Positions 9,298 through 29,136 of a stretch of DNA of 64,000 bases are shown here, piece after piece. The notes under the pieces were generated by a model that saw only the letters and a list, made by a program, of their open reading frames with translations, was not told where the DNA came from and did not search any database. The DNA is from Candidatus Poseidoniales archaeon. GTDB lineage: Archaea; Thermoplasmatota; Poseidoniia; Poseidoniales; Thalassarchaeaceae. Both the position numbers and the translations under genes were made by a program. Each line of letters starts with the position of its first letter. Positions within the stretch are counted from its first letter, which is position 1. The stretch covers positions 137,127 to 201,126 of the forward strand of contig JAPOFX010000001.1 of NCBI GenBank assembly GCA_028283505.1. Direction: 5' to 3'.

Positions 9298-9306
9298 CGG
9301 CGATAC

Positions 9307-10089: not shown

Positions 10090-10161
10090 GCCCGATAGTT
10101 CTGTTTAACGGCTATATGGCCCCAAGCCACCATTCAAGAGGTGAAGCGTCGGCGAACAATC

Positions 10162-10935: not shown

Positions 10936-10947
10936 TGAGGTGGCGTA

Positions 10948-11895
10948 ATGGAGTTATGGTTGGATGCGGAGATGTATGGGGGCCCCACCCAAGATACAGA
11001 CGGGGTAAGAGTTTGGGATGGATCTAGCTCGGATGTCGCGATGGTGGACATAACGGATGCTAGAGCGCAAAAAGAAGCCATTTCCCTGATAGGGAGTGTT
11101 CCTTGGATATTGATAAGGTGTAAAGACTGGAAGATGATACCACTTGAAAATTTAGTAGCATCTTCTAGAGGAAGCGGGACCAAATTAGCCATTGCAGTCT
11201 CAAAGAAAGTTGAACTGCAGGGGGTGGCATTCGCACTCCAACATGGAGTTGATGCCGTGGCTCTCCCACCAGAAAATAAATTCCCGGATCTCTGGTCAGT
11301 TGCAAGATCAATTGTGAGAGATAATGGAAATGGAAGCTCCGATGTGGACCCCCCTTCTCTGTCTTATGCCAGAATTACATCTGTAACTGAAGGAGGAATA
11401 GGAGAAAGGGCCTGCGTCGACCTTACGGAGAGGCTACTGGAGGGCGAAGGTATCGTAGCCGGATCAATTTCTTCTTGCCTCGGTATGATTCACGGAGAGA
11501 CGATCCCCTCCCAGTATGTCCCAACTAGGCCATTCAGGATCAACGCTGGGGCTTTACACTCTTATGTCATAATGGGTGATGGAACAACGAAGTACCTCAG
11601 CGAATTAGAATCTGGAGATCGGGTTTCTATCTTCTCTGTGGACGGTTCAATCAGAGAAGCGACCATTGGGAGGCTTAAAATCGAAAGAAGACCACTGCTA
11701 AAGATATCCTTTGAATCAGGGGAGTTTACCGGTCATGTGATGGTCCAGCAAGCCGAGACAGTACGCCTTGTTTCGAGTGATTCGAAACCAATCTCAGTGA
11801 CGGATATCTCTCAAGGCGATGAAATCATTGTAGTCATTGACAACAGCATGCGTCACATAGGTAGTGCAGTACCAGGGGAGGTCAGAGAATTATGA
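10948..11895 (+). CDS. aroB': 3-dehydroquinate synthase II (archaeal AroB')
   Basis: Conserved block RITSVTEGGIGERACVDL..GEGIVAGS..YVPTRPFRINAGALHSYV..TKYLSELESGD..IGRLKIERRPLL, typical of the archaeal DHQ synthase II family. Confidence 0.8.
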   Translation: MELWLDAEMYGGPTQDTDGVRVWDGSSSDVAMVDITDARAQKEAISLIGSVPWILIRCKDWKMIPLENLVASSRGSGTKLAIAVSKKVELQGVAFALQHGVDAVALPPENKFPDLWSVARSIVRDNGNGSSDVDPPSLSYARITSVTEGGIGERACVDLTERLLEGEGIVAGSISSCLGMIHGETIPSQYVPTRPFRINAGALHSYVIMGDGTTKYLSELESGDRVSIFSVDGSIREATIGRLKIERRPLLKISFESGEFTGHVMVQQAETVRLVSSDSKPISVTDISQGDEIIVVIDNSMRHIGSAVPGEVREL

Positions 11896-12746
11896 CAATT
11901 CTAGGTACAGGTGAGGCATTTGGAGCAATTTCAATTCTTCATGCATTGGGTACAGGAAAGGGTTGCTCAATCCCCGTCGAACTCCCAATTAGAGTCAATA
12001 TCCATGATTTTGAAATGAGAAATGATAATGATAAGCACGGAATTTTATCCATAATCTCATCAATTTGGGGTGAGAAGGGATACCCGGTTCCACCTGTCAT
12101 AGGCTGGGAGGTGATTAGCGAAATCCCCATTGGCCAGGGCCTAAAGTCTAGCTCAGCTCTTTCCTGTGCAGCAATCAAGGCACTCGATAAGGCATCTTGG
12201 ACGTGCCTTTCGGATTATGAGATAGTTGACTTAGCTGTGGAGGCGCAGAGGAGATCAGGTTGCACAATTTCCGGAAGTATGGACGATACATGGGCTACGC
12301 TAACTCCTGGATGGAAAGCAGTGGACTCCTCAAAACCTCCTGAAGACTCGATTCTCTTTGAAGGAGACATAGAGCCCGGATTTTCAGTCCTAATTGGGCT
12401 GAGGGGTTCAAGGAACAGTGATATTATAATCGAGTCATTTTACAAAAACTCGCATATCTTTGATAGAGCGCTCGCATCATTGATCAACGGATCCATACTG
12501 GATTCACTATCCTCAAATGGAATGGCTGTGGCTTCTTCTACGGAAGACTTCGAAGCACTGAGGATCAGTAATCTGATGATAGCCTCTGGTGCTGTGGCCG
12601 CTGGTATAAGTGGCTCTGGACCTGCTATTGCTGTAGTCTGCTATGCCTCGGACTCTGAACACATCAGGGGAAAACTTTCCGAGCTGTGCGATGAGGTAAT
12701 ATCAACTCAGTTCTTGTTATCCGAAGAGCTAGTCGAGGAGGCATAA
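11892..12746 (+). CDS. aroK: Shikimate kinase, archaeal GHMP-kinase type
   Basis: GHMP motif PIGQGLKSSSALSCAA. Length of about 280 aa. 4-nt overlap with aroB' and located next to aroC. Confidence 0.7.
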   Translation: MTILGTGEAFGAISILHALGTGKGCSIPVELPIRVNIHDFEMRNDNDKHGILSIISSIWGEKGYPVPPVIGWEVISEIPIGQGLKSSSALSCAAIKALDKASWTCLSDYEIVDLAVEAQRRSGCTISGSMDDTWATLTPGWKAVDSSKPPEDSILFEGDIEPGFSVLIGLRGSRNSDIIIESFYKNSHIFDRALASLINGSILDSLSSNGMAVASSTEDFEALRISNLMIASGAVAAGISGSGPAIAVVCYASDSEHIRGKLSELCDEVISTQFLLSEELVEEA

Positions 12747-12747
12747 C

Positions 12748-13848
12748 ATGGGAATGGGTCTCGGTGAAAACCTCAAGGTTACAATTTTTGGCGAGAGTCA
12801 TGGAAAGTGTGTGGGGGCATTGATTGAGGGGATCCCTCCCGGTACTCCAATAGATCCAGAAACCCTACTTCAGGATCTGCAGAGAAGGAAGCCCGGTAGG
12901 AAGGGGATGTCTCAGCGTTCTGAGGATGATCGATGTGAGATTATGTCAGGAGTCTTTGACGGAAAGGCTACTGGTTGGCCAATATTGATGCTTACTATGA
13001 ACTCAGATGCCAAATCGAAAGATTACTCATTCCTGCCCGATCATCCCCGTCCAGGGCATGCCGATTTGGTCGAGTCCGTTAGGTCCCAGGGTTCCGCCGA
13101 TCTGAGAGGGGGCGGCTCTCAGTCAGCTAGGCTAACATTCGGTCTGGTCGCTGCTGGAAGCCAAGTCAGATCTATTCTGGATAAGGTTGGATGGTCATGC
13201 CATGCTCACTTGCATAGTGTAGGGAACATTCAGTCAAAGCCACTTTTCGAATTAGACAGAAATAAAGAATTTGACCCAGGATCAGATTCAGGGAGACTGA
13301 ATTGTAGGGATCATGAAGCCGCAATTTTGATGTCACGTGAGATCGAGAAAGTCAGAAAAGAGAGGGATACCATAGGATCCGTGGTTGAGTTATTGGTAGA
13401 AGGTCTACCAATAGGGGTTGGGGAACCGTGGTTTGATGGCATTGAACCGTCCTTGGCGAGAGCACTCATGGCTATACCAGGTGCGAGGGCAGTGGAATTT
13501 TCTCATGGAGTAAAATCCTCTACAATGAGGGGGAGTGAGCATAATGACTCTTGGTTGCCCGGAACAGACTACCCAATTCTTGATGGCGCGTCCGAGGGAA
13601 CCGCCGACGGCTCATTGGGAGGGCGCTCAACTGGTGCTCCAATCTCAGTGAAGGTCCATTTTAAGCCACCAAGTAGCCTTCCCCAGAAGCAGTTCACATT
13701 GCACCTGCCCTCGAATCAACGTCAATACCTCGAAGTCGGAGGAAGGCATGATCCTGTGTTGGGTCCCAGGGCCGCGCCTGTAGTAGAAGCAGTTTCCATG
13801 CTCGTTATGGCGGATTTAGGAATAGCCGGAGGTTTCATTTCAGGCTAA
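12748..13848 (+). CDS. aroC: Chorismate synthase
   Basis: N-terminus LKVTIFGESHGKCVGALIEGIPPG, plus LQRRKPGR, RPGHAD and GGRHDP motifs. Confidence 0.85.
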   Translation: MGMGLGENLKVTIFGESHGKCVGALIEGIPPGTPIDPETLLQDLQRRKPGRKGMSQRSEDDRCEIMSGVFDGKATGWPILMLTMNSDAKSKDYSFLPDHPRPGHADLVESVRSQGSADLRGGGSQSARLTFGLVAAGSQVRSILDKVGWSCHAHLHSVGNIQSKPLFELDRNKEFDPGSDSGRLNCRDHEAAILMSREIEKVRKERDTIGSVVELLVEGLPIGVGEPWFDGIEPSLARALMAIPGARAVEFSHGVKSSTMRGSEHNDSWLPGTDYPILDGASEGTADGSLGGRSTGAPISVKVHFKPPSSLPQKQFTLHLPSNQRQYLEVGGRHDPVLGPRAAPVVEAVSMLVMADLGIAGGFISG

Positions 13849-14786
13849 GCGTTTCTTTCTCTCATCTGCTGAATCCTCAGGGGGAGATTTACTCCGAACA
13901 TTATTGCAATTATCAGGAATACAATTGCAGTTCCGAGGGCTACTCCATACACACTTGTCAACTCAACGGATTCCCTGAGCCTCTCTGAAGCGACATCTGA
14001 ACTACCGTCAAAGATATCGACAATCGCCGGAATTATGAGATTTATGAGTAGAGTCATCAGAGCTACCACTCCCGCAATAACTGGAGCAATTGCAAGTGAT
14101 GTATGGTATCTTCTGGTTATCTTGTTTACACCCATTACGTATACCTCATTCATCCTGATTGACGTATCTAACATAGAGAACCTGATTACCCCACTTGTCA
14201 GTTCAATGTACATCACTAGGAAGACCGCATACAGAATCAGGATGAACTTCTGAGCAATCTCGCCTTCTGGAAGGAAATCGAACCTGAATTCCACTGTACT
14301 TCCCGCAAACCTAACTGTTACCAGTATCAAAGCAACATAAGAAATTAGGATTGCCCTCCTATCCCTCTGGAAAATCCCGTAGGCGCCTCCAACCAGGCCT
14401 ATGACTATCAAGGAGAGATGGAATAGTCCAGCCAGTGAAGCTAATCCAAGAATATTAGAGATCGCGAACCAGGCAGTCCCAGAGACTGGGGTTATAGCTA
14501 AAGTGAGGAATGATAAAATCACCAAGGATGAAACAGCTCCCACCTGTAGTGATGAGACCATTCTGTCAGCAGGCAGGAACTTCTGTTTAGAAACGACAGG
14601 TCCACCGAAAAAAGACTCGATAAAGCTCGGGACATGTATCTCAGGTATAGCATCCTTTGGTATCTCGGTACTCGACTTCAGCCTACCTGCCGCCTTCTTC
14701 CTGCTGGGTGCTGAGGACCTCACGGTCTTTCCTTCGTAGAGATGGGAGGTATCTCCTCCCCCGTCTACCTTTACCTTGTCAGCCAT
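13845..14786 (-). CDS. Polytopic membrane protein, last gene of the MoxR/DUF58 module
   Basis: 313 aa. A basic cytoplasmic N-terminus is followed by about 6-7 hydrophobic helices. It starts 12 nt after the DUF58 gene on the same strand. Its 3' end overlaps the convergent aroC by 4 nt. Confidence 0.6.
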   Translation of the reverse strand: MADKVKVDGGGDTSHLYEGKTVRSSAPSRKKAAGRLKSSTEIPKDAIPEIHVPSFIESFFGGPVVSKQKFLPADRMVSSLQVGAVSSLVILSFLTLAITPVSGTAWFAISNILGLASLAGLFHLSLIVIGLVGGAYGIFQRDRRAILISYVALILVTVRFAGSTVEFRFDFLPEGEIAQKFILILYAVFLVMYIELTSGVIRFSMLDTSIRMNEVYVMGVNKITRRYHTSLAIAPVIAGVVALMTLLINLIIPAIVDIFDGSSDVASERLRESVELTSVYGVALGTAIVFLIIAIMFGVNLPLRIQQMRERNA

Positions 14787-14798
14787 ATTTCAATCACC

Positions 14799-16118
14799 TC
14801 AGAATCCCCTTGCTCCTGCCAGTGCGGTATTCAGCATCATATCTGGTTCCCAATCCATCACGAAGGCTCCAAGTCCCCGTAATTCGCTCATAAGGATATC
14901 GCGCTCTGTCTTCAAAACCTCGTAACCGGTCCTATCAAGCCTCTTGGCGTCGAACTCGAACTCAAGACTACTTGGAGAGAGGACAGTGACGTCAAAGTTT
15001 CTCGCCCTAAGATCCCTGACAGCATCGACAATTGTAGAGTCATCCTCCAGAGGACTTAGGATGATGATCGGACTGCCTCTGTTTATGTGTGGCATGATTC
15101 TGTTAGTGACTACCTTCAGAGGCGTATTGCCTTTCGCTATTGCCCCAGCCAGCTTCGTAAGTAGGACATAGAGTTGCTTTTTTCCCGTATCCCTGTCCAC
15201 GGAAACTATTTCATCACTGTAAACCACCAATCCTACAGAGTCTCTTCTTGATAAGAAGTACTGAGACAGACTCGCGGCCGCCCTTGTACTGTAGACTAGC
15301 GAGTTGCGGCTGACCGGGCCAGTCTCACTTACAGACCTGCTGTCAATGATTATGATTATGTCACTAACTGCATCTCTCTCGTACTCATTGACCATCATTT
15401 TCCCACCACTCCTAGCGGTTGCAGCCCAATTCACCTTTTTCATCGGATCTCCGGGTATATACTCCCTCAGATTGTAAAAATTCGACCCTTCTCCAGGATT
15501 CCTAATGTTGACAGCACCGGTGAAAATCTTCGGGACTCGACTTTTTATTAGTGCGTCCTTGATATCTTCCATCTTGGGGAATACAAGGAAATCGTCGTAC
15601 AGGTTAACTTCCCTCTCATTGTGGAACAACCCAAATGCATCTTGGATTCTGATGCACACCGGCCCTATCGTGTAGAATCCTCTCAGAGGGGTTTCTATTG
15701 TGTACCTGATTGTGGTCTCTCTTTGTGGCCCTAGTTCCATAAGTACGTAATTCGCACCCTTCTTGACCCTCATAACCTCCGGAACCCGGTCTCTCACCTC
15801 TACGATCTTTGGCAAATTGGATTTATTCTGCAGCCTTAAGGTAACCTCAATCTCACCATCTTCAAAAATTCTAGACGAGGAAATCTTTCTCAAAGCAACA
15901 ATGCTGTTTAGTTGAACACCATCATTTTTCCTCTCTTCTTCTGCTCTTCGTCCAGATGAGGAAACATCGGCATGGTTGGACATGAATGCAGCCCAAGTTA
16001 GGAATGAAAGAAGTACCACTGCAACAGTTACCAGTTGCTGGTTGCGAAGTACCAAGCCAAGAAGGTATAGAGCGATTGCCAATGATGCGAACATCGCTGA
16101 CTTCCTGCTCCACGCCAT
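14799..16118 (-). CDS. DUF58 (vWA-like) protein with N-terminal TM hairpin
   Basis: DUF58 signature YNLREYIPGDPMKKVNWAATARSGGKMMVNEYERD followed by a vWA-like region (IIIIDSRS..). Adjacent to the MoxR ATPase. Confidence 0.75.
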   Translation of the reverse strand: MAWSRKSAMFASLAIALYLLGLVLRNQQLVTVAVVLLSFLTWAAFMSNHADVSSSGRRAEEERKNDGVQLNSIVALRKISSSRIFEDGEIEVTLRLQNKSNLPKIVEVRDRVPEVMRVKKGANYVLMELGPQRETTIRYTIETPLRGFYTIGPVCIRIQDAFGLFHNEREVNLYDDFLVFPKMEDIKDALIKSRVPKIFTGAVNIRNPGEGSNFYNLREYIPGDPMKKVNWAATARSGGKMMVNEYERDAVSDIIIIIDSRSVSETGPVSRNSLVYSTRAAASLSQYFLSRRDSVGLVVYSDEIVSVDRDTGKKQLYVLLTKLAGAIAKGNTPLKVVTNRIMPHINRGSPIIILSPLEDDSTIVDAVRDLRARNFDVTVLSPSSLEFEFDAKRLDRTGYEVLKTERDILMSELRGLGAFVMDWEPDMMLNTALAGARGF

Positions 16119-16158
16119 GTCAAATCTCCTCTTTCACCCTAATAGAGTCCTCAAGACC

Positions 16159-17214
16159 TCAAACCGTTGGGACCGGTACTTGTCTCAGAATGTCGGAAAC
16201 AACCTCCTCATTTTCCAATCCCTTAATTTGGTGTTCTGGTTTTAGGATCAGCCTGTGTGAAACTGCCAATACTGCGACAGATTTTACATCGTCTGGGGTG
16301 ATGAAGTCCCTACCACTCATTGCAGCCGCTGCACGGCTGGTCTTGAGCAAGGCTTGGGAACCACGAGGGGATGAACCGACGAGGACCCTCGGGTCTTCCC
16401 TGGTTCTGGTAACTATCTCAACCATGTACATTCTAACTGCCGGATCGACATACACCTCCTCACATGCTTCTTGCATTGCAACCACTCTTGCTGGGTCAGT
16501 TATCGTCTCCACTTCAACGTCATCCTTCTTCCTTGCTACACGTCGTGCAAGAATCTCGTCCTCATCAGCTCGGTTTGGGTAACCAACACTCATCTTGAAC
16601 ATGAATCGGTCAAGCTGAGCCTCAGGCAGAGGATATGTACCCTCTTGCTCCACCGGGTTTTGGGTGGCCATAGTCAGGAAAGGAGCTGGGAGCTTATGTG
16701 TAACTACTCCGATGGTAACTTGCTTCTCCTGCATAGCCTCTAATAGAGCCGCCTGGGTCTTTGGCGGAGCTCTGTTGATTTCGTCAGAAAGAAGAAGATT
16801 GCAGAATATAGGTCCAGGCTTGAATGTGAACTCTCCCTTTTTGGCATCATAGATGTTGGTCCCTGTGATATCCGCAGGCAACAAATCAGGAGTGAATTGA
16901 ACTCTCTTGAAGTCGCATCCAAGTGCGTCAGCGAACGTATTAGTCATGAGAGTCTTTGCCAGACCTGGGTAATCCTCGAATAGAAGATTTCCATTCGATA
17001 GTATGTTGATGAGCACGTTATCGATTACATGGGATTTTCCAATAATCACCTTCTGAACTTCAGCGCTTATGGCTTCTCCAATCCTTCCGACAGCCTCTAA
17101 CTTTTCGTTTGTCTTCTTGGATCCTCTGGCCTTCGCAGCCTTCTCCTCGTACCCTTTCGATACTACGTCTGCTGGCGGTGCTGGGGGTTTTTCTGCTGGC
17201 GGTGTTGCGTTCAT
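16159..17214 (-). CDS. moxR: MoxR-family AAA+ ATPase
   Basis: Blocks seen are LLFEDYPGLAKT, RVQFTPDLLPADITG, Walker B/sensor region LLLSDEINRAPPKTQAALLEAMQE, ATQNP.EQEGTYPLPEAQLDRF and a C-terminal SPRGS lid. Confidence 0.85.
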   Translation of the reverse strand: MNATPPAEKPPAPPADVVSKGYEEKAAKARGSKKTNEKLEAVGRIGEAISAEVQKVIIGKSHVIDNVLINILSNGNLLFEDYPGLAKTLMTNTFADALGCDFKRVQFTPDLLPADITGTNIYDAKKGEFTFKPGPIFCNLLLSDEINRAPPKTQAALLEAMQEKQVTIGVVTHKLPAPFLTMATQNPVEQEGTYPLPEAQLDRFMFKMSVGYPNRADEDEILARRVARKKDDVEVETITDPARVVAMQEACEEVYVDPAVRMYMVEIVTRTREDPRVLVGSSPRGSQALLKTSRAAAAMSGRDFITPDDVKSVAVLAVSHRLILKPEHQIKGLENEEVVSDILRQVPVPTV

Positions 17215-17260
17215 ACTATTATCTCCAGTTAATCATTGCTTTTGTCAATTGCGTCTGCGG

Positions 17261-18856
17261 TCAATTTCCGCCTCCCCAGCGTCTGATGGATTGCATCAGC
17301 TCTCTGAGCTCTTTAGGGGAGTATTTTCTCTCTTTGGAATAAGCTAGCTCCACAAGTCTTGGATTGCCAATCATCGATTGGATCTCAGCTGGTGGCTTAA
17401 GCGCCATTTGATCTCTGGTGAGGTCATGGTGGACCCTAATTTTCGTGAATAGTGCCTGCTGAACTCTTCTTCTGTATTCACTCGGATTTAGCTTGTTAGG
17501 CCTCTCGGAGAATCTGGTCAAATCAAAAACATGTCTCCAGTTTTCCTTTTCTGGGACAATCATCATTGCAACTAGTAGCAGAAGTCCAACGTTTAGTACG
17601 ACTAGCCATTTTAGGAATGTGTTGGAGGTGAGTAAAACGACAGTACTCATAGCTTCAACGAATGGGGCCGAGACGACTCCCGTGACGTGCCTGCTTTCGT
17701 CAAACACTACCTGAAAGTTGGAGAAATCACTCTTCACTTCTCCGGACAATTCCAGATTATCGAACTCCATCATAGAGTAAATTAGAAGTCTGAAGTAGTC
17801 TCCATTTCCATTCCATTGAGATCCATCGGAATCCTCGAATGCATCATTCCAACAACTCTGGTAGGCACCTATTACCTCACAAACTCTGGGAATCCCCTCT
17901 CCTTGAGCTACTTCATCAGTCCAAAGCATGTTCGAGAAGGCTTCAGGGTCTGAAACGAAAACAATGCTTCCAGTCACCTCTATCTCAGCGGTATTACCAC
18001 CGACGATTGCCTGACCTCCCCTAACTTTGTCGTACACATTAATTCCTGGGTAATCAGCTCTTATCATCAGTGCCAAATCTCCTGGAGCGGGATTTCTGAA
18101 GTCACTTGAATCTCCATTCCCGATTAGATCTATAAATGCGGAGGGAGATGCCTTCGATATTACGGTCACGTCACGATGCCCCGGGTCTTCCCTATCTCTC
18201 TCGGTTTGCTCAAATTTCATTCCCGTGGGCTTTCTGAACATTACTGGAAGAGCGCATGAGTCGTCGTATTGGTCAATCTCGAATGTCCCACACCCATCAT
18301 TTCCAAACTCCGTTGCCTCTTCCTCAAGTGTTCCGATCCCCCAAACGTTTTCCCATGAATATTGACTAACTCCTTCGTCATTCTCAGTGACGTAATACTG
18401 GTTTTCGTCTAGCAGGGGGGAATCAAAGTAAGTCACTCCAAATTTAGAGGCTAGCCTATTTGCGTTAGTTCCGTCAGCGGCCACAATGACCTTGCCACCA
18501 GACTCTGTGACGAAATCGTAAATTGAATCCGCCTCGGTCTGATCAATCGGTTTTTCTGGAGCTATAACGAGTAGCATGGTCCTATGAGGGTATTTCCAGT
18601 CGTTTACTAGCATTGGAGTTGACATGGTGTTAGCAATCGAATAACCATCGTCCTCCTCCAAGCTATCCCTCATATCCTTCAACTGAGCCAGTCCGTCGTA
18701 GTCCCCCTCACTTGAATAAGCAGAATAATGAGTGGCCTTTCCAACTACGAAAATCATTGGCAGGATGAGGAGTAATGCAGTCGTAATCCCCAGAGACCAA
18801 GTGACGTATGTGCCGAATTCTCGACCATCGTCTTTGTTATCCAAGCTAACCAACAC
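17261..18856 (-). CDS. DUF4350-like membrane protein (N-terminal TM, large exoplasmic domain, second TM, basic cytoplasmic tail)
   Basis: Region MLLVIAPEKPIDQTEADSIYDFVTESGGKVIVAADGTNANRLASKFG resembles DUF4350. First gene of the MoxR/DUF58 operon. GTG start. Confidence 0.55.
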   Translation of the reverse strand: MLVSLDNKDDGREFGTYVTWSLGITTALLLILPMIFVVGKATHYSAYSSEGDYDGLAQLKDMRDSLEEDDGYSIANTMSTPMLVNDWKYPHRTMLLVIAPEKPIDQTEADSIYDFVTESGGKVIVAADGTNANRLASKFGVTYFDSPLLDENQYYVTENDEGVSQYSWENVWGIGTLEEEATEFGNDGCGTFEIDQYDDSCALPVMFRKPTGMKFEQTERDREDPGHRDVTVISKASPSAFIDLIGNGDSSDFRNPAPGDLALMIRADYPGINVYDKVRGGQAIVGGNTAEIEVTGSIVFVSDPEAFSNMLWTDEVAQGEGIPRVCEVIGAYQSCWNDAFEDSDGSQWNGNGDYFRLLIYSMMEFDNLELSGEVKSDFSNFQVVFDESRHVTGVVSAPFVEAMSTVVLLTSNTFLKWLVVLNVGLLLLVAMMIVPEKENWRHVFDLTRFSERPNKLNPSEYRRRVQQALFTKIRVHHDLTRDQMALKPPAEIQSMIGNPRLVELAYSKERKYSPKELRELMQSIRRWGGGN

Positions 18857-18994: not shown

Positions 18995-19930
18995 CTAGTC
19001 CCGCCTATCCGTCTTGATTGATGCTGAAATAAGAATCATAATTACCGTCAGAAAAACTCCTATATTTGGCAAATTAGAACTTACCACCTCATCAATGGTG
19101 TCGCCCTCATTTCCTCCTTGATCATTTGTCCCCTCTTCCTTCACCGGAGGTGGCTCAACAGTAACTCTGACACTATCACTTGCTATCACAGAACCGCCAG
19201 AGTTCGTGGCGCCGTTCGATGAGATGACAACTTCCACCTCACAATTTCTTTGAGGATGGCTTTGGGACGCGGTAATCACCAAGGGCGAGGAAACTCCATT
19301 CTGTATATCACGACTAGTGAGTTCATCAAGGGAGCTTGTTGTCAGCAATGGGCAATTGTCGGATATCTCCACAGAACCAACCCTATCCGGTGCGTTACCT
19401 AGATTCCTAACTAATACCTCGAGCGTCATTTCAGACCCAGAATTCATCGGTCCAACTGGTTCCGATATGCTGATTTCCAAATCATAAATGGTTGGAATCA
19501 AAAGCTCTCCAGTGCTACTTCTTGAATCCGGAATTGGCTGAGGGACTGAACCCCTTGATGCCAACTGCCCGGTTATGCTAAACTCTTCAGTGGTTTCGGC
19601 GGGATTATCCCTGACATTGATGCCTGAAATTGCTAGGGTGAATGTCTTATTATTTCCAGCACCAATCGTCTCGGACTCTGGTCCGTCGTATTCCCCCTCA
19701 AACGGTATTTCATAGTCAAAATCCACAGTGATTGGTAACAGCTCGTTATTCGAGACGAAAAAGGACACAGTCACAGCCCCCGTTGAACTCAATTTGAAGG
19801 GATTATCTTCATCCTCTTGGGGGTATTCAATCCCTAGTTCCCAACCCGGAGGCTCAGGCTGCTGAGAGGCTACTATTGTCGAACACATGCAAAGTAAAGC
19901 AATGGAGGCGATAATAACTCCGACCTTCAA
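18995..19930 (-). CDS. Secreted CARDB/Ig-like protein with C-terminal TM anchor
   Basis: Signal peptide MKVGVIIASIALLCMCSTIVAS. CARDB-like segment MTLEVLVRNLGNAPDRVGSVEISDN. C-terminal helix IGVFLTVIMILISASI followed by KTDRRD. Begins 2 nt after the FAD-subunit gene. Confidence 0.6.
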   Translation of the reverse strand: MKVGVIIASIALLCMCSTIVASQQPEPPGWELGIEYPQEDEDNPFKLSSTGAVTVSFFVSNNELLPITVDFDYEIPFEGEYDGPESETIGAGNNKTFTLAISGINVRDNPAETTEEFSITGQLASRGSVPQPIPDSRSSTGELLIPTIYDLEISISEPVGPMNSGSEMTLEVLVRNLGNAPDRVGSVEISDNCPLLTTSSLDELTSRDIQNGVSSPLVITASQSHPQRNCEVEVVISSNGATNSGGSVIASDSVRVTVEPPPVKEEGTNDQGGNEGDTIDEVVSSNLPNIGVFLTVIMILISASIKTDRRD

Positions 19931-19932: not shown

Positions 19933-20913
19933 TTAGCCCTCCAGTAGGGCACTACATGCTCTTCTGGTTAGAACTTTGACCATTTTTTTCCTGTAAGAGG
20001 GCGGATACCAAGTGTTTAGGACAGGCTTCACCGACCTTCTGACAGACTCAGATAACTTGGTCACACTATCTTTGCCATCCCATCCTTCCAAAGCCTCCAT
20101 GGCCTGTTCAGTGTGTAACACGGGCACGGACTCCAAACCGGTCGTTGCTACACGCAAATCTTCGATGATGCCCCCCTCTCTTTTCCATGTCACTGCGACT
20201 CCTGCTTCAGGGAAATCCCAGCTTTCTCTCTGTCTTAGTTTCTGATAATCTCCTTCCCATTCAAATAGGTCCTCAGGGAAGGTGACATGTGTCACTATTT
20301 CACCTTCCCTTAGCACGTTTCTAGTCATCCCATCAAGTCTGAAGAACTCATTAATTGGCATCTCTCTGGATTCATCGTGTGACGAAAGGTGTATGGTCGC
20401 ACCAAGGCACATCAGAACGGGAGCCAAATCAGCCTGGTATGTTGCAACACATAGGTCGTTCTGATTAGGAATTACTCTACAGTCTGCCCCAGTTCCACAA
20501 TCACATTTATGGCACCAATCTATAGACTCCCGCCACTCCTCAGTTTGATTGTACCAGAAGCACCTAGTATCGAGACAGATATTTCCTCCCAATGTCGCGG
20601 ATCTCCTGACCATCACGCTAGCTATCTTGCTGGCAGTTTGGGAGATTAAAGGATGAATAGAATCCGACTCAACTATTTCCTGAAGGCTTACCATGGCTCC
20701 TATTCTGAGTGGCGAAATTACATACAATTCATCGATTCCTGATAGTGAGATCACATCCTTCTTGGTATTGATGTGCCATTTGTAATTTGGAATAATATCG
20801 GTACCTCCTGAAATCCAGTCGTACTCCCTTCCCTCTGATGATAATTCTGAGGCTTTTGATAGTGCTTCATTCAACGTACTTGGGGTGTGTAAGTTGAACG
20901 GTGGCATCCTCAC
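19933..20913 (-). CDS. Molybdenum hydroxylase FAD-binding (medium) subunit with Cys-rich insertion
   Basis: CoxM/XdhB-type FAD_binding_5 pattern (WISGGTDIIPNYK, ATLGGNIC). Cys-rich stretch CLDTRCFWYNQTEEWRESIDWCHKCDCGTGADCRVIPNQNDLC. 4-nt overlap with the large subunit. Confidence 0.8.
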   Translation of the reverse strand: MRMPPFNLHTPSTLNEALSKASELSSEGREYDWISGGTDIIPNYKWHINTKKDVISLSGIDELYVISPLRIGAMVSLQEIVESDSIHPLISQTASKIASVMVRRSATLGGNICLDTRCFWYNQTEEWRESIDWCHKCDCGTGADCRVIPNQNDLCVATYQADLAPVLMCLGATIHLSSHDESREMPINEFFRLDGMTRNVLREGEIVTHVTFPEDLFEWEGDYQKLRQRESWDFPEAGVAVTWKREGGIIEDLRVATTGLESVPVLHTEQAMEALEGWDGKDSVTKLSESVRRSVKPVLNTWYPPSYRKKMVKVLTRRACSALLEG

Positions 20914-23741
20914 TCCACATCACCCCTATACCTTCTCTCCGTGTGCTTCCATGCGCTTCCAGCTAAACCGGGATCTTCTAAATAACCATCCGGGGGTATT
21001 ACTACCGCTGCCCATCTTGAGTCTTGTTCGTCTCCGGGAATCTCAGGGTCTAGTCCGAAAAGGGCCCCATTGTGATAGGGGGATGGGCTATCTGTAAGCC
21101 TTCTTTCCTTATCCCTTTTTGAGTGATCGATTGACCTTCTTTGCAGAGTTTCCTGCAGGGATGTAAACTCCAGTCTGGGAGGGGCCATGTCTGATGGTTC
21201 CCCAATCCCCTCAGATTTGCACCTTCTCTCGATCGCCTTGTACAATCTGTCTGGTGTGATCGGAAGCTCACTAACCCTTACCCCGATAGCATCGTAAACA
21301 GCGTTAACAACCGCTGGAAGTATGGGAAGCAGAGGCCCCTCCCCAGCTTCCTTAGCGCCAAACGGACCTTCAGGATCATTGGACTCAACGATTATCGGAG
21401 TGACATCTGGCATCTCATGAACCGTGGGTATCTTGTAATCCAAGAGGTCAGGATTCAGAAGATGCCCCGTCCGGCCATACTTCATCTCTTCACTGAGGAC
21501 TTGCCCCAACCCCATGTGGCACGAACCAATAATCTGGCCCTCCACGGCCAACGGGTTGAGTGCCTTACCGCAATCATGAGCTGCCCAGACTTTCGTAACC
21601 TTAGTTTGCCCCGTCTCTACGTCCACATCAACCTCCGCGACATAAGCAGAAAATGAGTACGCAGGAGCAAGTCCGGCAGCTGCGCCTTTGTGTGCCCTTC
21701 CCATCGGGGGTGTACGGTACGAACCCGAGGAAACCAATGCCCCCTTGTCTTCTTGGGCCTTATGTAAGGCTTCCAAGTAAGAAACGCCAACTGCGGGATC
21801 TCTTTTGTCGAAGATTCGACGATCACCGATTACTAGACCCTCGATTTTCGAACCGGTAATTTCACTTGTCGCCTCCAATAACTCGTTCCTTATCTCCATT
21901 GCCGCTGAAATAGCCGCATTGGCATTCATGAAAGTTACTCTCGATGAGTAGGAGCCCAGATCAACCGGAGAAGTGTCACTTTCCTTGCTTCTGACTCTGA
22001 TCATGTCGAGAGGGAGGCCCAGAACTTCAGCCACCGATTGAGCTACAACCGTATCAGATCCCTGGCCTATGTCGGCGGCACCAGTATGGACAGTGACTCC
22101 TCCGTCCATATCGATTTTCAAGTGAACTGTGGCGTGAGGGAACTTGTTTGGGTCCCAATGTATCGGGAGGCCACTTCCAGAGATAAAGAACCCGCAACCT
22201 ATTCCTATGCCCTTCCCAAGAGGCATCTTTCTGAATTTTTCATCCCATCCGGACTCTTCTTTCACCCTTTCAAGACATTCCCTCATACCTATGCTTGTGA
22301 CTCTAAATCCAGTAATCGTGGCACTGTGAGGGGGCAGTAGATTTGCAAGCCTGAAATCAATTGGATCAACCCCAAGCTGTTCAGCCAAATCATCAATCCC
22401 AGTTTCCACGGCGCACCTCGAATTCACCGCGCCATGGCCCCTCATGGCACCACTGGCTGGCTTATTGGTCCACACCCTGGCGCCAGTATAATGGAAAGCT
22501 CCAATTTCATAGGGTGCAGTATGGAGAACTCCGTTGTAATAGGTAGTCACATGTCCGAACGATGCAAAAGCACCTCCATCAATCAGGGCATCGGTCTCTA
22601 TGCCACAGAGTCGACCCTCTGAATCCGCATGCAAAGACATTGATATCTTCGAAGGGTGCCTCCCTCTGTTTACCCAGAAAACCTCCTCCCTGTCGAAATT
22701 AATCCTCACAGGCCTGCCTGTCTTCCTAGCTAGAATAGCCGCGCACATTTCGTGAGGGAAAGGGTCCGACTTCCCGCCAAACCCTCCTCCTACGAATGTC
22801 CTGTACACATTTATCTGATGCATAGGGATGTCCAATACGTCGGCAAGAGCTCTGTGCAAGTAGTGAGGCACCTGTTGAGGAGTGTAAAGCGTCAATCTGC
22901 CAGAAGGGTCCCAGTGAGCCACGACTGCGTGTGGCTCAGTAAACCCATGATTAACCCCGGTGAAAGTCCAGTTTGACTCGTGAGAGGCTAAAGAACTATC
23001 TTTCATATCAGAAATATTTCCAAACTGCTGGAACACCCTTTTCTGTACGTTTGAATCACCAATATGGTATTTGCCTCGGTCATGAATCGGGTTTTCGGAA
23101 TCTTCCAGCCCCTGCTTAATATCATGAATGGAATCAAGGACCTCGTATTCTACCTCAATCAATCTACATGCCTCTCTAGCTGTAGGCTCATCAATAGCCG
23201 CGACACATGCCACTAGATCTCCGACATGTCTGACTTTCTCTACAGCCATGGCGTGCTCGTCTTTGGTAACCGGAAGGACACCAAACTTCCCCGGGGCGTC
23301 TTCCCCAGTAGCTACTCCCAAAACTCCTGGCAACTCTAGTGCTTTACTGATATCGATAGAGAGTACTCTGGCATAATGGTGAGGACTTCTCAGGATTCTC
23401 CCGATTACCTCTCCCTGGAGCCTGATGTCATCTCCATATTTTGCCTGGCCAGTTACTTTCCAATTACTGTCCACTAGGGAAGTGGGTTTTCCGATTACTT
23501 GGCCACTCACCAAGTCATCATGCCTGTGTGGCCCCCATGGCTGTTTCAAAGAACCCCCTTGTGATTCAGGAATTCTCGAGTAATCAGTCGGTTTGGAGAA
23601 ACGATTTCTACCCCCTGAACCCGGCTTAGAGAACGGTAGCTTACCGGGTTGTTGTCTGTATCCAACCATCTCACCCGATTCCGAAGTAACATCTCTTTCG
23701 GAAGCTTCCTTACTTTTGATCGAACGGTCATTATCTGACAT
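20910..23741 (-). CDS. Molybdopterin-binding large subunit, xanthine dehydrogenase/aldehyde oxidase family, with N- and C-terminal extensions
   Basis: Patterns KVTGQAKYGDD, FVGGGFGGKSD and ASGAMRGHGAVNSRCAVE. It lacks the VAYRCSFR motif of form I CO dehydrogenase. At 943 aa it is longer than the usual ~780 aa. Confidence 0.85.
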   Translation of the reverse strand: MSDNDRSIKSKEASERDVTSESGEMVGYRQQPGKLPFSKPGSGGRNRFSKPTDYSRIPESQGGSLKQPWGPHRHDDLVSGQVIGKPTSLVDSNWKVTGQAKYGDDIRLQGEVIGRILRSPHHYARVLSIDISKALELPGVLGVATGEDAPGKFGVLPVTKDEHAMAVEKVRHVGDLVACVAAIDEPTAREACRLIEVEYEVLDSIHDIKQGLEDSENPIHDRGKYHIGDSNVQKRVFQQFGNISDMKDSSLASHESNWTFTGVNHGFTEPHAVVAHWDPSGRLTLYTPQQVPHYLHRALADVLDIPMHQINVYRTFVGGGFGGKSDPFPHEMCAAILARKTGRPVRINFDREEVFWVNRGRHPSKISMSLHADSEGRLCGIETDALIDGGAFASFGHVTTYYNGVLHTAPYEIGAFHYTGARVWTNKPASGAMRGHGAVNSRCAVETGIDDLAEQLGVDPIDFRLANLLPPHSATITGFRVTSIGMRECLERVKEESGWDEKFRKMPLGKGIGIGCGFFISGSGLPIHWDPNKFPHATVHLKIDMDGGVTVHTGAADIGQGSDTVVAQSVAEVLGLPLDMIRVRSKESDTSPVDLGSYSSRVTFMNANAAISAAMEIRNELLEATSEITGSKIEGLVIGDRRIFDKRDPAVGVSYLEALHKAQEDKGALVSSGSYRTPPMGRAHKGAAAGLAPAYSFSAYVAEVDVDVETGQTKVTKVWAAHDCGKALNPLAVEGQIIGSCHMGLGQVLSEEMKYGRTGHLLNPDLLDYKIPTVHEMPDVTPIIVESNDPEGPFGAKEAGEGPLLPILPAVVNAVYDAIGVRVSELPITPDRLYKAIERRCKSEGIGEPSDMAPPRLEFTSLQETLQRRSIDHSKRDKERRLTDSPSPYHNGALFGLDPEIPGDEQDSRWAAVVIPPDGYLEDPGLAGSAWKHTERRYRGDVE

Positions 23742-24359
23742 CTACTCACTCCCTGAGAACCCGGGATGAGGATCACTCTTTGATGAAGTAGAGTTGCCAA
23801 CCCTTCTGCCAGAGACTAATATCTCTGACGCTTTGGAAATCGACTCAACTATTTGTTGATAACCGGTACATCTGCATAGATTTCCTTCGATTGCAGTCTT
23901 TATCTCCGCTTCAGAAGGAGAAGGATTTTTTTCTAGCAAGGCCGCTGAGACAACTAGGAAGCCAGGTGTGCAAAAGCCACATTGGCTCCCTCCGCAGTCG
24001 GCAAAAGTCTGCTGAATTGGATGCAAATGGTGGCCTGAAGATAGACCCTCTACAGTAGTGATTTCGCAATCCCTTACTTCTTGGGCCAGTACTAGACAGG
24101 AAAGCTTTGGAGTTCCATTTATCATCACACTACAGCAACCACATGTTCCCATGTCACATCCTCTTTTCGTACCCAAACTACCGGACTGATCCCTCAATAC
24201 GTCCAGGAGAATCGCATTGCTGTCTATGAAGAAGTCTACGTTTACACCGTTAACACTGGCATTCCATCTGACCTTATCGGGCCCGGGAACCAAAGGTAGG
24301 CTATACTGCACCACATGCTCACCAGAACAATCAACGACTTGAGTATTTTGTTCCCCCAT
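23742..24359 (-). CDS. [2Fe-2S]-binding small subunit of the molybdenum hydroxylase
   Basis: Plant-type cluster motif GCDMGTCGCCSV plus a second cluster motif QCGFCTPGF..LCRCTGY. Abuts the large-subunit start codon. Confidence 0.85.
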   Translation of the reverse strand: MGEQNTQVVDCSGEHVVQYSLPLVPGPDKVRWNASVNGVNVDFFIDSNAILLDVLRDQSGSLGTKRGCDMGTCGCCSVMINGTPKLSCLVLAQEVRDCEITTVEGLSSGHHLHPIQQTFADCGGSQCGFCTPGFLVVSAALLEKNPSPSEAEIKTAIEGNLCRCTGYQQIVESISKASEILVSGRRVGNSTSSKSDPHPGFSGSE

Positions 24360-24365: not shown

Positions 24366-25013
24366 TTACTGAATGTCTTCTAACACTTTCTTCATAATTT
24401 CAAACTCAGCTCTCTTCATGTGCTCACCTAACGTGCTTCTGGCCATGCCAAGTCCATCAGCAATATCTTTGAGTTTGATATCCGAATTAGGGTCAAAGTA
24501 ACCCATATTTATGGCGTAAGAGAGTACTTCCTTCTGCTTGTCTGTCAACCCATCAGTCCAACCATTTTTCTCTTCCTTTCTGAAAGAATTAACACTGATT
24601 TTATCCGGTGGAAGTACTACTCTAAGAAGAGATACGAACCTGCTTACAGAGCCAGAAAGTCCGGATAGCCTAAGCTCCATGCCTCTTGTCGAATCTATCC
24701 CGTATGGGGGGTATACTTGAATGTTCGATAGCTCAATAGCGGACTTAGCAAAGGGATGGCTACAAAGAATGCTCGCTACCAACAAATCTCCATCCTCCTC
24801 TAGAACTTCGATAACCTCTAGCCAACTGATTTCTGATAAGTCGGTAATCTCCCTTCCTTCTTTCATTCGTATTTCGGCTAGTTGAACGACTCCCCTTTCG
24901 CTGACAGAAAGATGACTCAGAACCTCTATACTTTCTGCGATCTTCAAGATGTTTGATATGTCACTTGAGCCGTGGAGAGATGAGATATTCCATCTTAGGT
25001 TTACTCTTCTCAT
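24366..25013 (-). CDS. HTH_10 (bacterio-opsin-activator-type) transcriptional regulator
   Basis: C-terminal LTDKQKEVLSYAINMGYFDPNSDIKLKDIADGLGMARSTLGEHMKRAEFEIMKKV is the archaeal HTH_10 pattern. It ends 6 nt before the small-subunit start. Confidence 0.7.
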   Translation of the reverse strand: MRRVNLRWNISSLHGSSDISNILKIAESIEVLSHLSVSERGVVQLAEIRMKEGREITDLSEISWLEVIEVLEEDGDLLVASILCSHPFAKSAIELSNIQVYPPYGIDSTRGMELRLSGLSGSVSRFVSLLRVVLPPDKISVNSFRKEEKNGWTDGLTDKQKEVLSYAINMGYFDPNSDIKLKDIADGLGMARSTLGEHMKRAEFEIMKKVLEDIQ

Positions 25014-26334: not shown

Positions 26335-27186
26335 CTATCTTGTCTTTCTATCGAATGATAGAATCTCGGCGCATATCGCCAATGCAATCTCCTCTGGGGT
26401 ATCGGCTCCGATATCGAGACCAATTGGGCATCTGGCTGGAGATAGTTTTTCCTCAGTCAATCCGGATTCAATCGCTGCCTTCCTGAAACCATTCCACTTT
26501 GTAGTGGAACCAATAACGCCTATTCGAGGAACGCCATCTAAGATTTTGAGCAGTCCTATGAGTAGTTCTTGATCCACGGACCAATCGTGACCTAGGACCA
26601 GTATATCCGAGAATCTTCTAATTGATGACACTGTCTCATTTCCCAGTAATTCATCAACTGAGCTACACAGAATCTCAGAGGCTTTAGGATATCTTTCCAG
26701 ATTAGAGTATTCGCTTCTGACATCAAAAACACTGTATTTCCAGCCAAGGGTTTCGCAAACTATCGACACAGACATGCCTACATGGCCACCTCCTGCAATC
26801 AATATGTGAGGGACAGGCTCAATCACTTCCAAAGACACCCTCAACTGACCCCCGCATAGACTGTCAAGGGCAACGGCCTCTTTTCCCTTCCCCTCTTTGT
26901 GCAGAATGTAGGTCTCAATTTTACCCCCTGTCTTCCTCATTTTGGATTTATCAATTGCTAACATTTCAATCAAGTTTCTCTCGATCTTCAATTCAAGCCC
27001 AGCACCACCCACGGTGCCGAATTTTTCACCCATGGAGGATATAGCTAACTTCGCCCCAGGTTTTCCCGGAACACTCCCCCTAGCCTCTATAACTGATGCC
27101 AAGGCAACCCTTTCTCCGTGATCCAATCTCTCGACGATCCAGGATAGTACGGCACGAGACATGGTCAGGGGAAGGTAATGGTACAC
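26335..27186 (-). CDS. xdhC: XdhC/CoxI-family molybdenum cofactor insertion chaperone
   Basis: N-terminal XdhC_CoxI pattern ALASVIEARGSVPGKPGAKL plus a Rossmann part ILIAGGGHVG. About 280 aa. Confidence 0.75.
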   Translation of the reverse strand: MYHYLPLTMSRAVLSWIVERLDHGERVALASVIEARGSVPGKPGAKLAISSMGEKFGTVGGAGLELKIERNLIEMLAIDKSKMRKTGGKIETYILHKEGKGKEAVALDSLCGGQLRVSLEVIEPVPHILIAGGGHVGMSVSIVCETLGWKYSVFDVRSEYSNLERYPKASEILCSSVDELLGNETVSSIRRFSDILVLGHDWSVDQELLIGLLKILDGVPRIGVIGSTTKWNGFRKAAIESGLTEEKLSPARCPIGLDIGADTPEEIALAICAEILSFDRKTR

Positions 27187-27314: not shown

Positions 27315-28556
27315 ATGTCGTCAAGCATCACCCTTGACGAAGCTTTAGAAATTATTGTAATTTCGATGAGAGATGCATTTCTGGCAGTAACCGTATTCGT
27401 TGCTGCAATGGTCCTTTTATTCAGTTGGCTACAATATATCTCAGCTGGGAAATTCGTAATTTGGATTAGAGAGAACAGGAGTATCCAGCCTCTAATTGGT
27501 GCGATAATGGGACTAACTCCGGGTTGTGGAGGTGCGATAATTATAATGCCAATGTACACTAAAGGATATGTCACCTATGGGACCGTGATAGCTACACTTA
27601 TTGCCACTCTTGGTGATGCGGCCTTTGTCCTGATTGGGGCGGTTTTTCAGGATTTTTCATTCCTAGTGCCAGTTATTGCTGTACACTTAATCTCATTCGT
27701 CGTTGCGGTAATCTGGGGATTTACAGTCGATAGATTAGCGGTAACTCCTGCATCCCCATTAGGAATAATATGGAAAAAAGCTGATTATGAAACCCGCAAA
27801 GAAGACTACATCTCGGATCCTTTTGAAGAGAATGAAATAATTTCCGATATGCCCAGAGAGGCTCAAGATGGGTTTGGTTACAGAATTCTTCACCAGGGGT
27901 ATAGAATATGGTGGGTAGTAACAATCGTTGGTTTTTTGTTGGCGACCCTTCTTCTATTTTGGTACGCACAAGATCCCGAATACTCTCCCAACTTGGTCTG
28001 GGACCCATTCACACGTGACGGCCTGATAACTTGGGTCGGGTTCACAGGGACCCTTCTTTCTGTAATACTCTACATCTCATCAAAGAATTTCATACGGGAC
28101 GATACAGAGGCCACAATTGGGGACAAGCTGAACTCGTTTGATGAAACCCTGGTGCACGCTGCCTCCGAGACTGCTTTCGTTACATTTTGGGTGGTTTTGG
28201 CATATCTAATTTTTGAGTTCGGCTTGATATTCTCTGGAATTTCAGAAGCAGACCTAAGTGAAAGGGGAGCTGGAGCAGAGGCAATTGCGATAGCCGCCAT
28301 GATAGGACTGATTCCAGGTTGTGGGCCACAGATAATTGCAATTTCTGCGTATGTAGAGGGAATAGTTTCCTTCCCAGCACTGGTATCCAACGCAATATCG
28401 CAGGATGGGGATGCGCTATTCCCCCTTCTGGTAAGGCACAAGACAGCTTCAATTTGGGCAACGATTCACACCACGTTTCCTGCGTTATTAGTGGGGTTAA
28501 TATTCATGTGGATTCTTGGCGAATCTCACTTTCTCACAGAAATTCTACAGCCCTGA
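27315..28556 (+). CDS. Internally duplicated polytopic permease with paired PGCG motifs (possible metal/oxyanion transporter)
   Basis: Two homologous halves: GLTPGCGGAIIIMPMYTKGYVTYGTVIATLIATLGDAAFVLIG and GLIPGCGPQIIAISAYVEGIVSFPALVSNAISQDGDALFPLLV. About 10 TM helices by eye. The family assignment (ArsP_2-like) is from memory only. Confidence 0.5.
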   Translation: MSSSITLDEALEIIVISMRDAFLAVTVFVAAMVLLFSWLQYISAGKFVIWIRENRSIQPLIGAIMGLTPGCGGAIIIMPMYTKGYVTYGTVIATLIATLGDAAFVLIGAVFQDFSFLVPVIAVHLISFVVAVIWGFTVDRLAVTPASPLGIIWKKADYETRKEDYISDPFEENEIISDMPREAQDGFGYRILHQGYRIWWVVTIVGFLLATLLLFWYAQDPEYSPNLVWDPFTRDGLITWVGFTGTLLSVILYISSKNFIRDDTEATIGDKLNSFDETLVHAASETAFVTFWVVLAYLIFEFGLIFSGISEADLSERGAGAEAIAIAAMIGLIPGCGPQIIAISAYVEGIVSFPALVSNAISQDGDALFPLLVRHKTASIWATIHTTFPALLVGLIFMWILGESHFLTEILQP

Positions 28557-29136
28557 GAAATCTGTCAACATCATCTTTCGTGTCTACATTTAGGTGCAGA
28601 AATCTATCATCAACAGGGATTCTTTGAGGGTAAATTACTTTGTTGAGTGGGATATCTGAAGGAGATTTTAGAATTCTGTTACAATCCTCTTCTGAAATCA
28701 GAAGCGGGTGCCCACCCCTTCCGTCAAATGTGGGGCATGTACTGGAAACTTTGCTCATAAGAAACTCGACAGTAGCCTTCGAGAAACCAGGCCTATCAAC
28801 CGGTACGATCAGAATTCTATCGGGCCCTCCAGAGTCCATTTTGAGGAATTTCAGACCTTCTTTGACAGTGCCCGTCCTCCCTGACTCAGGAGAGTAATTA
28901 ATGATGACCTCAATGTCACCAACTGATTCCTTAACTTTTTGATAAAGCTCATTTCTGGTCACAACGACGGGCGACAGTCCCAGCTCGGTTAACCTTCTAG
29001 AGATCCATGAAACTAGTGTTTCCTCTCCTACTTCAATCAGAGCCTTTGGATACCCAAGCCTACTGCTCTCTCCCGCGGCTAGAACTATACAACCAATTTC
29101 TGTCTCACTTATTTTCACGAAGCATCTCTCTTCCAA
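28534..29136 (-). CDS. mocA: MobA-like NTP transferase, probable molybdenum cofactor cytidylyltransferase (MocA)
   Basis: N-terminal IVLAAGESSRLGYPKAL nucleotide-binding motif. About 200 aa. Located in a molybdenum-hydroxylase neighbourhood. The start overlaps the ACAD stop by about 30 nt and is uncertain. Confidence 0.65.
   Translation of the reverse strand: MEERCFVKISETEIGCIVLAAGESSRLGYPKALIEVGEETLVSWISRRLTELGLSPVVVTRNELYQKVKESVGDIEVIINYSPESGRTGTVKEGLKFLKMDSGGPDRILIVPVDRPGFSKATVEFLMSKVSSTCPTFDGRGGHPLLISEEDCNRILKSPSDIPLNKVIYPQRIPVDDRFLHLNVDTKDDVDRFLRAVEFL

Follow-up and report, generated by a model that had tools for sequence, protein, structure and literature searches.

An operon encoding a molybdenum enzyme belonging to the xanthine oxidase (XO) family was analysed in a stretch of 64 000 nt from an archaeon of the order Poseidoniales (Marine Group II), family Thalassarchaeaceae (assembly GCA_028283505.1, contig JAPOFX010000001.1, positions 137,127 to 201,126). 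This stretch is the window to which coordinates refer below. The three genes lie in a tight operon in the order gamma-alpha-beta, with the gene for the FAD subunit last. It is proposed here, with a probability of roughly 0.7, that their product is a cytoplasmic, ferredoxin-coupled enzyme containing molybdenum bound to molybdopterin cytosine dinucleotide (Mo-MCD), two [2Fe-2S] clusters, FAD and a [4Fe-4S] cluster, and that it belongs to a sister clade of 4-hydroxybenzoyl-CoA reductase (hereafter 4-HBCR), without being 4-HBCR itself.

The beta (medium) subunit is encoded on the minus strand at 19933..20913 and begins with a GTG codon. Its 326 aa comprise an FAD-binding domain, a Cys-rich loop insert and a CO_deh_flav_C domain. 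Pfam assigns FAD_binding_5 (residues 6-214, the 170-position model being stretched by the insert) and CO_deh_flav_C, and the FAD motifs GGTD (36-39) and TxGGN (107-111) are invariant. The insert itself, 43 residues long (residues 113-155; 20449..20577, minus strand), reads CLDTRCFWYNQTEEWRESIDWCHKCDCGTGADCRVIPNQNDLC. It contains seven Cys, at positions 113, 118, 134, 137, 139, 145 and 155, and matches exactly the sequence quoted in the original prediction, while just two Cys (169 and 320) are situated elsewhere in the subunit. At the Cys frequency of the genome (1.17 %, from long ORFs), the probability of finding at least seven Cys in 43 residues is approximately 7e-7. When the subunit was aligned with Escherichia coli XdhB, one continuous gap spanned the entire loop, which is therefore a true insertion with respect to ordinary XdhB/CoxM flavin subunits.

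The top match of the FAD subunit among PDB sequences (phmmer) was 1rm6_B, the beta subunit of 4-HBCR from Thauera aromatica (HcrB; E value 1.5e-48), followed by 5y6q_B (2.4e-23) and 4zoh_B (1.1e-21). In the phmmer alignment, C118, C134, C145 and C155 of the query correspond to C122, C138, C146 and C155 of HcrB, and C113 pairs with HcrB C117, so that Cys is found at all four equivalent positions and at a fifth. C137 and C139 fall within a three-residue insertion (CDCGTG in the query, YK---G in HcrB). The AlphaFold2 (AF2) model of the subunit, with a pTM of 0.84, also had 1rm6_B as its top Foldseek match (E value 1.2e-28, TM-score 0.84). The published title of the 1rm6 structure names an additional [4Fe-4S] cluster.

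The Cys residues were then considered in terms of their conservation. C118, C134, C145 and C155, together with C113, are kept in 82 of 82 sequences in an alignment of Poseidoniales orthologues (80 orthologues plus the query, 57-94 % identity), whereas C139 is kept in 81/82 and C137 in 71/82, with Ala elsewhere. A wider family set was obtained by an exhaustive search of 1.84 billion representatives at 50 % identity, which yielded 274 clusters at E <1e-30. In the resulting alignment of 132 sequences (130 full-length representatives, HcrB and the query), Cys occupies the four positions in 132/132, accompanied by the flanking motifs DTRC, NQ, WR, CxK and CxAT, while the C113 position is variable (78/132). 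Since the HcrB loop contains five Cys, of which the fifth (C117) is variable, the four invariant residues are, by elimination, the proposed ligands. Judged from these alignments, the loop is homologous to the [4Fe-4S] loop of HcrB, and the equivalence of the Cys positions suspected in the original prediction was borne out. Because the ligand Cys align with those of HcrB and are invariant both in the orthologues and in the family, an extra [4Fe-4S] cluster beside the FAD is very likely.

The C-D-C motif (residues 137-139; window 20497-20505) occurs only in Marine Group II. Of the 132 family sequences, 128 have a gap in the C139 column, and Cys is found there only in the query and in a Marine Group II representative. 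C137 is replaced by Ala in 11/82 orthologues, for example at the Poseidoniaceae locus L074. The motif could supply an alternative ligand, form another metal site or act as a redox-active pair.

In the enzyme proposed here, Cys118, Cys134, Cys145 and Cys155 would bind a [4Fe-4S] cluster next to the FAD, and electrons would move along an internal wire composed of Mo-MCD, the two [2Fe-2S] clusters, FAD and [4Fe-4S]. At the last of these, an external carrier, most likely ferredoxin, would dock and exchange single electrons. The loop supports an additional cluster and a partner that exchanges single electrons; the original prediction had put forward such a cluster and, as one possibility, a ferredoxin partner. 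The inverted electron flow that it named beside these is not implied by the loop alone, and the statement that such a loop distinguishes HcrB proved to be outdated. A four-Cys loop is inserted at the same point in the FAD subunits of two other XO-family heterotrimers, E. coli PaoABC (PDB 5G5G) and the aldehyde oxidase of Methylobacillus (PDB 5Y6Q). In the alignment, the four Cys of the Methylobacillus medium subunit (5y6q_B) are at this site; of the four in E. coli PaoB, which carries the RefSeq name 'FAD-binding Fe-S subunit', three coincide in position with those of the query and one is elsewhere. As PaoABC is oxidative and also carries the loop, the loop is not proof of reversed electron flow. 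A (hetero)aromatic dehydroxylation, either reductive or reversible, is slightly favoured, because 4-HBCR and Ucdh (see below), the only enzymes characterised in this sequence space, work reductively. About equally possible is an aldehyde oxidoreductase or an oxidative hydroxylase passing electrons to ferredoxin.

Several observations weigh against the proposed ferredoxin-coupled [4Fe-4S] enzyme. The identification of HcrB beta122, beta138, beta146 and beta155 as cluster ligands, reportedly made by Unciuleac et al. (2004), is backed in this analysis by the logic of conservation. The exact ligand set in Marine Group II could differ, given the extra loop residues C137 and C139. Residues 115-158 of the AF2 model have pLDDT values below 50, and the predicted fold accordingly gives the cluster no geometric backing. 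None of the genes linked to the operon encodes a ferredoxin, and when the gene neighbourhoods in Marine Group II and its nearest relatives were searched for a clue to the substrate, none was found, only genes for cofactor maturation. Marine Group II archaea are, moreover, photoheterotrophs of oxic water. 4-HBCR, on the other hand, is oxygen-sensitive (PMC12771579).

The kinship of the enzyme to 4-HBCR is also evident in its large subunit. Against the PDB, this subunit matched 1rm6_A (HcrA) with an E value of 6e-191 and 640 bits, followed at a distance by quinoline oxidoreductase (281 bits), the carbon monoxide dehydrogenase (CODH) of mycobacteria (270 bits) and PaoC (235 bits); it therefore clusters with HcrA, and clustering with enzymes that lack the cluster, which would have told against the original prediction, was not observed. 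As that prediction had also stated, the form I CODH motif is missing: neither AYxCSFR nor AYxGAGR occurs in the large subunit, and the corresponding model, TIGR02416, scored 281 against a cut-off of 991. The small subunit had 1rm6_C as its top match (3.3e-42), by a margin that is not discriminating. The T. aromatica enzyme HcrCAB (PDB 1RM6/1SB3), with which the Marine Group II enzyme shares its three-subunit composition, is thus the closest solved structure for every subunit. In agreement with this, NCBIfam ranks the Hcr equivalog models TIGR03193-TIGR03195 first for all three subunits.

None of these equivalog scores reaches its cut-off, however (TIGR03194, 820.6 vs 994.55; TIGR03195, 239.3 vs 404.55; TIGR03193, 171.4 vs 257.8), and the HcrB model exceeds its own in 0/151 Poseidoniales genomes, the maximum being 262.7. 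Identity to HcrCAB is 43.6 % for the alpha subunit and approximately 33 % for the beta subunit, whereas Thauera HcrA shares no less than 74 % identity with each of its 120 top-ranking relatives in the database. The large subunit is closer, at 53-56 % identity, to those of marine Planctomycetota and Thermoplasmata, encoded beside the closest FAD subunits from outside Marine Group II. A quick maximum-likelihood tree of the large subunit (IQ-TREE, 33 rows, rooted on E. coli PaoC and XdhA) yielded three groups: a clade of Marine Group II enzymes (support 99), a group of sister enzymes (89) and the HcrA clade (100), whose long stem measures 2.2 changes per column. The tree does not fix the branching order among these three, and the outgroup branches are long.

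The differences extend to the active site. Conservation within the Marine Group II clade and within the HcrA clade reaches 95 % or more at 311 columns; the two clades differ at 112 of these, where the sister enzymes mostly carry the Marine Group II residue. The differences are concentrated in three segments: GGGFGGKSDPFPHE in Marine Group II corresponds to GGGFGARTExLxFE in the HcrA clade, CGFFISGSGLPIHW to SHFVSGTSTPKHW, and SPVDLGSYSS to TPKDNGSYSS. These segments correspond to substrate-contacting loops of bovine XO. The residues lining the Mo site that are conserved within, and proper to, Marine Group II and the sister enzymes are contained in GGKSDPFPHE (GARTExLxFE in HcrA), GFFISGSGLPIHW (SHFVSGTSTPKHW in HcrA) and PVDLGSYSS. 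Close to the Mo atom, by contrast, the likeness to HcrA is retained. The Gln, Arg and catalytic Glu are kept in the Marine Group II and HcrA clades alike, and the motifs GAMRGHG, GSYSSRVTF and FGAKEAxEG are shared. In the query, these residues lie in the conserved motifs TPQQVP, GAMRGHG and AKEAGEG and are the equivalents of Q767, R880 and E1261 of the bovine enzyme.

Genes with which 4-HBCR would be expected to act were sought in the hosts. Among 41 Poseidoniales genomes, there was none with an HGD-D protein (the BcrB/C family of class I benzoyl-CoA reductase, BCR), none with Oah/BamA above the cut-off (TIGR03200; best 56 bits vs 464) and none with a benzoate/4-hydroxybenzoate-CoA ligase above the cut-off (TIGR02262). 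Aldehyde ferredoxin oxidoreductase (AFOR; AFOR_N, the BamB family) was found in 0/13 genomes of the genus. The host of the Marine Group II enzyme thus differs from that of HcrCAB in having no benzoyl-CoA pathway. A positive control for context was provided by locus L091 (Logan SRR26541437 contig, 1-14319), a class I BCR locus on an uncultured contig that falls within the HcrA clade and has the aromatic gene cluster classical for anaerobes: its hcrCAB-like genes are accompanied by HGD-D and BcrAD_BadFG genes, two of each, and by a POR-type 2-oxoacid:ferredoxin oxidoreductase. No such bcr-type neighbours are present at the Marine Group II or sister loci. In view of the scores below cut-off, the placement outside the HcrA clade, the distinct active-site signature and the missing benzoyl-CoA pathway, the enzyme is, as far as can be judged from sequence, not an orthologue of 4-HBCR but a member of a separate, uncharacterised sister clade. 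The clade's own loop residues at the Mo site and a host without this pathway would argue for a substrate other than 4-hydroxybenzoyl-CoA. Literature searches produced no paper combining Marine Group II with 4-HBCR, and nothing for furoyl-CoA dehydrogenase with 4-HBCR.

The nearest relatives are the Hcr-like operons in metagenome-assembled genomes (MAGs) of marine Planctomycetota and other Thermoplasmatota (loci L082-L085 and L088-L090; beta subunits 40-43 % identical, alpha subunits as given above). They resemble the Marine Group II operon in gene order, in the four Cys and in the active-site signature, and they too have only cofactor-maturation genes as neighbours, and no bcr genes. They differ in lacking both the C-D-C insertion and the extensions of the alpha subunit described below, and none of them has been characterised. 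A further XO-family enzyme close to 4-HBCR, compared here by its description, is Ucdh (UcdCFO) of Enterocloster bolteae. Its closest characterised relative is 4-HBCR, and among the reductive dehydroxylases of the XO family it is the second to have become known; its substrate is a phenol, not a CoA ester (PMC12771579, PMC11760930). In contrast to the Marine Group II enzyme, Ucdh has no [4Fe-4S] loop, and its electrons come from NADH (PMC11760930, PMC12771579).

Four other explanations were weighed against a ferredoxin-coupled enzyme of a sister clade. In the automatic annotation of JGI, the operon encodes a genuine 4-HBCR, which would use reduced ferredoxin to remove the phenolic OH from 4-hydroxybenzoyl-CoA. 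The best matches of all subunits to 1RM6 and to TIGR03193/4/5, the retention of the four ligand Cys and the common gene order would all fit this, but the evidence from scores, identity, clade, active-site loops and missing pathway genes set out above makes it highly improbable. The insert might instead be a structural Cys-rich element, i.e. a zinc site or disulfides with no [4Fe-4S] cluster, as the low pLDDT of the loop and the extra Cys in Marine Group II could suggest. Given the clear homology to the loop of 1rm6_B and the invariance of four Cys and their flanking motifs over 132 divergent sequences, very little probability is attached to this explanation; stable disulfides, in particular, are unlikely because the enzyme is cytoplasmic. 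A xanthine dehydrogenase, acting in purine catabolism together with a highly transcribed xanthine/uracil permease, is somewhat less implausible, but still quite unlikely. Its XdhA model was second-best in NCBIfam (539.6 bits) and a gene for an XdhC chaperone is adjacent, but the scores are well short of their cut-offs (NF043082, 539.6 vs 780; TIGR03196, 413 vs 784) and far below that of the Hcr model. The Glu of GGGFGGKE, the substrate-binding Glu802 of the bovine enzyme, is represented by an invariant Ser (GGKSD) throughout the Marine Group II and sister enzymes. The loop is not present in E. coli XdhB or in other solved flavin domains of xanthine dehydrogenases, and uricase was found in 0/41 Poseidoniales genomes, other urate oxidases not having been searched. 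These data lower the probability of a role in purine chemistry without disproving it. This explanation is the only one found in the literature, where the genes appear as 'xdhC and yagS' (Damashek et al. 2021; PMC9723583).

The remaining explanation, that of a PaoABC-like aldehyde oxidoreductase working oxidatively, is the least improbable of the four, but is nonetheless considered unlikely. The [4Fe-4S] cluster would then be the exit of the wire to ferredoxin or O2, and the function would be aldehyde detoxification, as has been proposed for PaoABC-like systems of marine Flavobacteriaceae (bioRxiv 10.64898/2026.07.15.738685); in the same report, the four-Cys motif is treated as characteristic of PaoABC. 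Such an enzyme would suit an aerobic lifestyle, and the Fe-S loops of PaoB and 5y6q_B at the same site are consistent with it. The large subunit is, however, distant from PaoC (27.7 % identity, and 235 bits compared with 640 for HcrA), and the PaoABC equivalog models are well below their cut-offs (NF041671 for PaoC, 320 vs 1180; NF008514, 122 vs 322). Three of four Cys positions match PaoB, as against four of four for HcrB. Finally, PaoABC, which like the 5Y6Q enzyme is oxidative, is exported by the twin-arginine translocation (Tat) system, whereas inspection of the gamma subunit N-terminus revealed no twin-arginine (RR) signal.

The three-subunit architecture typical of the XO family was confirmed by Pfam for the whole operon (Fer2/Fer2_2, FAD_binding_5/CO_deh_flav_C and Ald_Xan_dh_C/MoCoBD_1/MoCoBD_2), and its gene order is also that of hcrCAB. 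The gamma (small) subunit (23742..24359, minus strand) has 205 aa, two [2Fe-2S] motifs and the Pfam domains Fer2_2, Fer2 and Fer2_3. The alpha (large) Mo-MCD subunit (20910..23741, minus strand) is an ORF of 943 aa with Ald_Xan_dh_C, MoCoBD_1 and MoCoBD_2 domains, of which the core (residues ~82-838) is HcrA-like. Extensions flank this core at the N-terminus (residues ~25-81; window 23487-23669) and at the C-terminus (841-940; window 20913-21221). They are gap-free across Poseidoniales, where each 20-residue block is 42-68 % identical to the query, but are not found in HcrA, in the Planctomycetota/Thermoplasmata sister enzymes or in other Thermoplasmatota homologues. These extensions, of ~55 and ~100 aa, and the CxC insertion of the beta subunit are extra features of the Marine Group II enzyme relative to HcrA and HcrB. 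The first 24 codons of the alpha ORF (window 23670-23741) are not conserved, with 81 % gaps in the orthologues and residues 1-20 not kept. The true start is probably M25, at nt 23669, which would leave a gamma-alpha intergenic gap of ~72 nt.

Putative regulatory and maturation genes are situated upstream of the operon. A Bat-type HTH_10 (Pfam) transcription regulator (24366..25013, minus strand) lies 6 nt upstream of the gamma gene and has a homologue in 42/80 related loci. An XdhC-type chaperone for insertion of the molybdenum cofactor (Moco), with XdhC_CoxI and XdhC_C domains (26335..27186, minus strand), likewise has homologues in 42 of the 80 loci and also adjoins the Thermoplasmata homologue. 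Farther upstream is a MocA/MobA-like nucleotidyl transferase (28534..29136, minus strand; NTP_transf_3, 2.4e-23), a candidate MCD synthase whose family also adjoins the Planctomycetota and Thermoplasmata homologues. A divergently oriented gene for an ArsP_2-family permease with ten transmembrane segments (27315-28556, plus strand) is placed between those for XdhC and the MocA-like transferase; its product could possibly be a metal transporter linked to the Moco genes. The neighbours that recur in Marine Group II and its nearest relatives belong to Moco maturation only (XdhC, NTP_transf_3, Aminotran_5 and ThiF). A small ferredoxin of 93 aa is encoded on contig C21, and the genome contains at least this one.

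Downstream, a 311-aa protein with no Pfam match (18995-19930, minus strand) begins 2 nt past the FAD-subunit gene, and its gene is possibly part of the same transcript. A transmembrane segment is found at its C-terminus and a signal or transmembrane segment at its N-terminus, and 78/80 loci contain a homologue, with a median identity of 43 %. A block of DUF4350, MoxR AAA+, DUF58 and membrane-protein genes follows directly (13845-18856, minus strand) and is syntenic in 60-73 of the 80 Marine Group II loci. Together with shikimate genes, this block looks like general Marine Group II synteny.

MAGs and single-cell genomes of Marine Group II (Poseidoniales) account for all of the 80 best related loci, which span Thalassarchaeaceae (the closest, 94 %) and Poseidoniaceae (~58 %); the original MG-II assembly, CM001443.1, is among them. 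The HcrB model matched one gene each in 148 of 151 Poseidoniales genomes, with all 58 high-quality genomes and all 22 genera represented, and median identities across the order are 81 % for the large, 65 % for the FAD and 68 % for the small subunit. Other Thermoplasmatota contain homologues of 42-60 % identity over query residues ~70-845, with a patchy distribution (26 of 101 sampled genomes, including Poseidoniales). The host genome (1.30 Mb, 89 % complete) encodes a single large subunit of the XO family. This is not its only molybdoenzyme, an idea that was rejected after one MopB-family (PF00384) match was found per genome, that of the host being C17:56508-57617 (84 bits); the sulfite-oxidase family was found in 0/21 genomes.

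Two further observations concern individual homologues. Locus L039 (JBJKZL010000002.1, labelled Neomarinimicrobiota; a Marinisomatota bin) encodes a Marine-Group-II-type FAD subunit with 65 % identity over residues 1-324, and probably stems from a Marine Group II contig placed in the wrong bin. In-frame stops were observed in one Marine Group II FAD subunit (TGA) and in two Thermoplasmatota large subunits (TAA and TAG), the homologues in question being G030:C6:3252-4187, G222:C30:6301-8706 and G188:C55:72175-74451. These may represent pseudogenes, sequencing errors or recoding.

The operon forms a single-copy core gene set of Marine Group II and encodes the only XO-family enzyme of the host genome. 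Neither of the names under which it appears publicly, '4-hydroxybenzoyl-CoA reductase' and 'xanthine dehydrogenase/yagS', is backed by the tests reported here, and caution is called for before purine catabolism or the anaerobic degradation of aromatics is read from such annotations in ocean metagenomes. Belonging to a distinct clade and carrying an HcrB-type [4Fe-4S] loop, the enzyme offers an expressible target for establishing the role of a low-potential molybdenum enzyme in these archaea. One tentative and rather doubtful suggestion is that Marine Group II and a wider set of marine Planctomycetota and Thermoplasmatota employ this Hcr-like enzyme as a reductive dehydroxylase powered by ferredoxin, or as some other low-potential reductase, acting in oxic water and without a benzoyl-CoA pathway on an abundant (hetero)aromatic substrate from marine dissolved organic matter. 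If true, it would represent a third functional class of reductive XO-family enzymes, after 4-HBCR and Ucdh.

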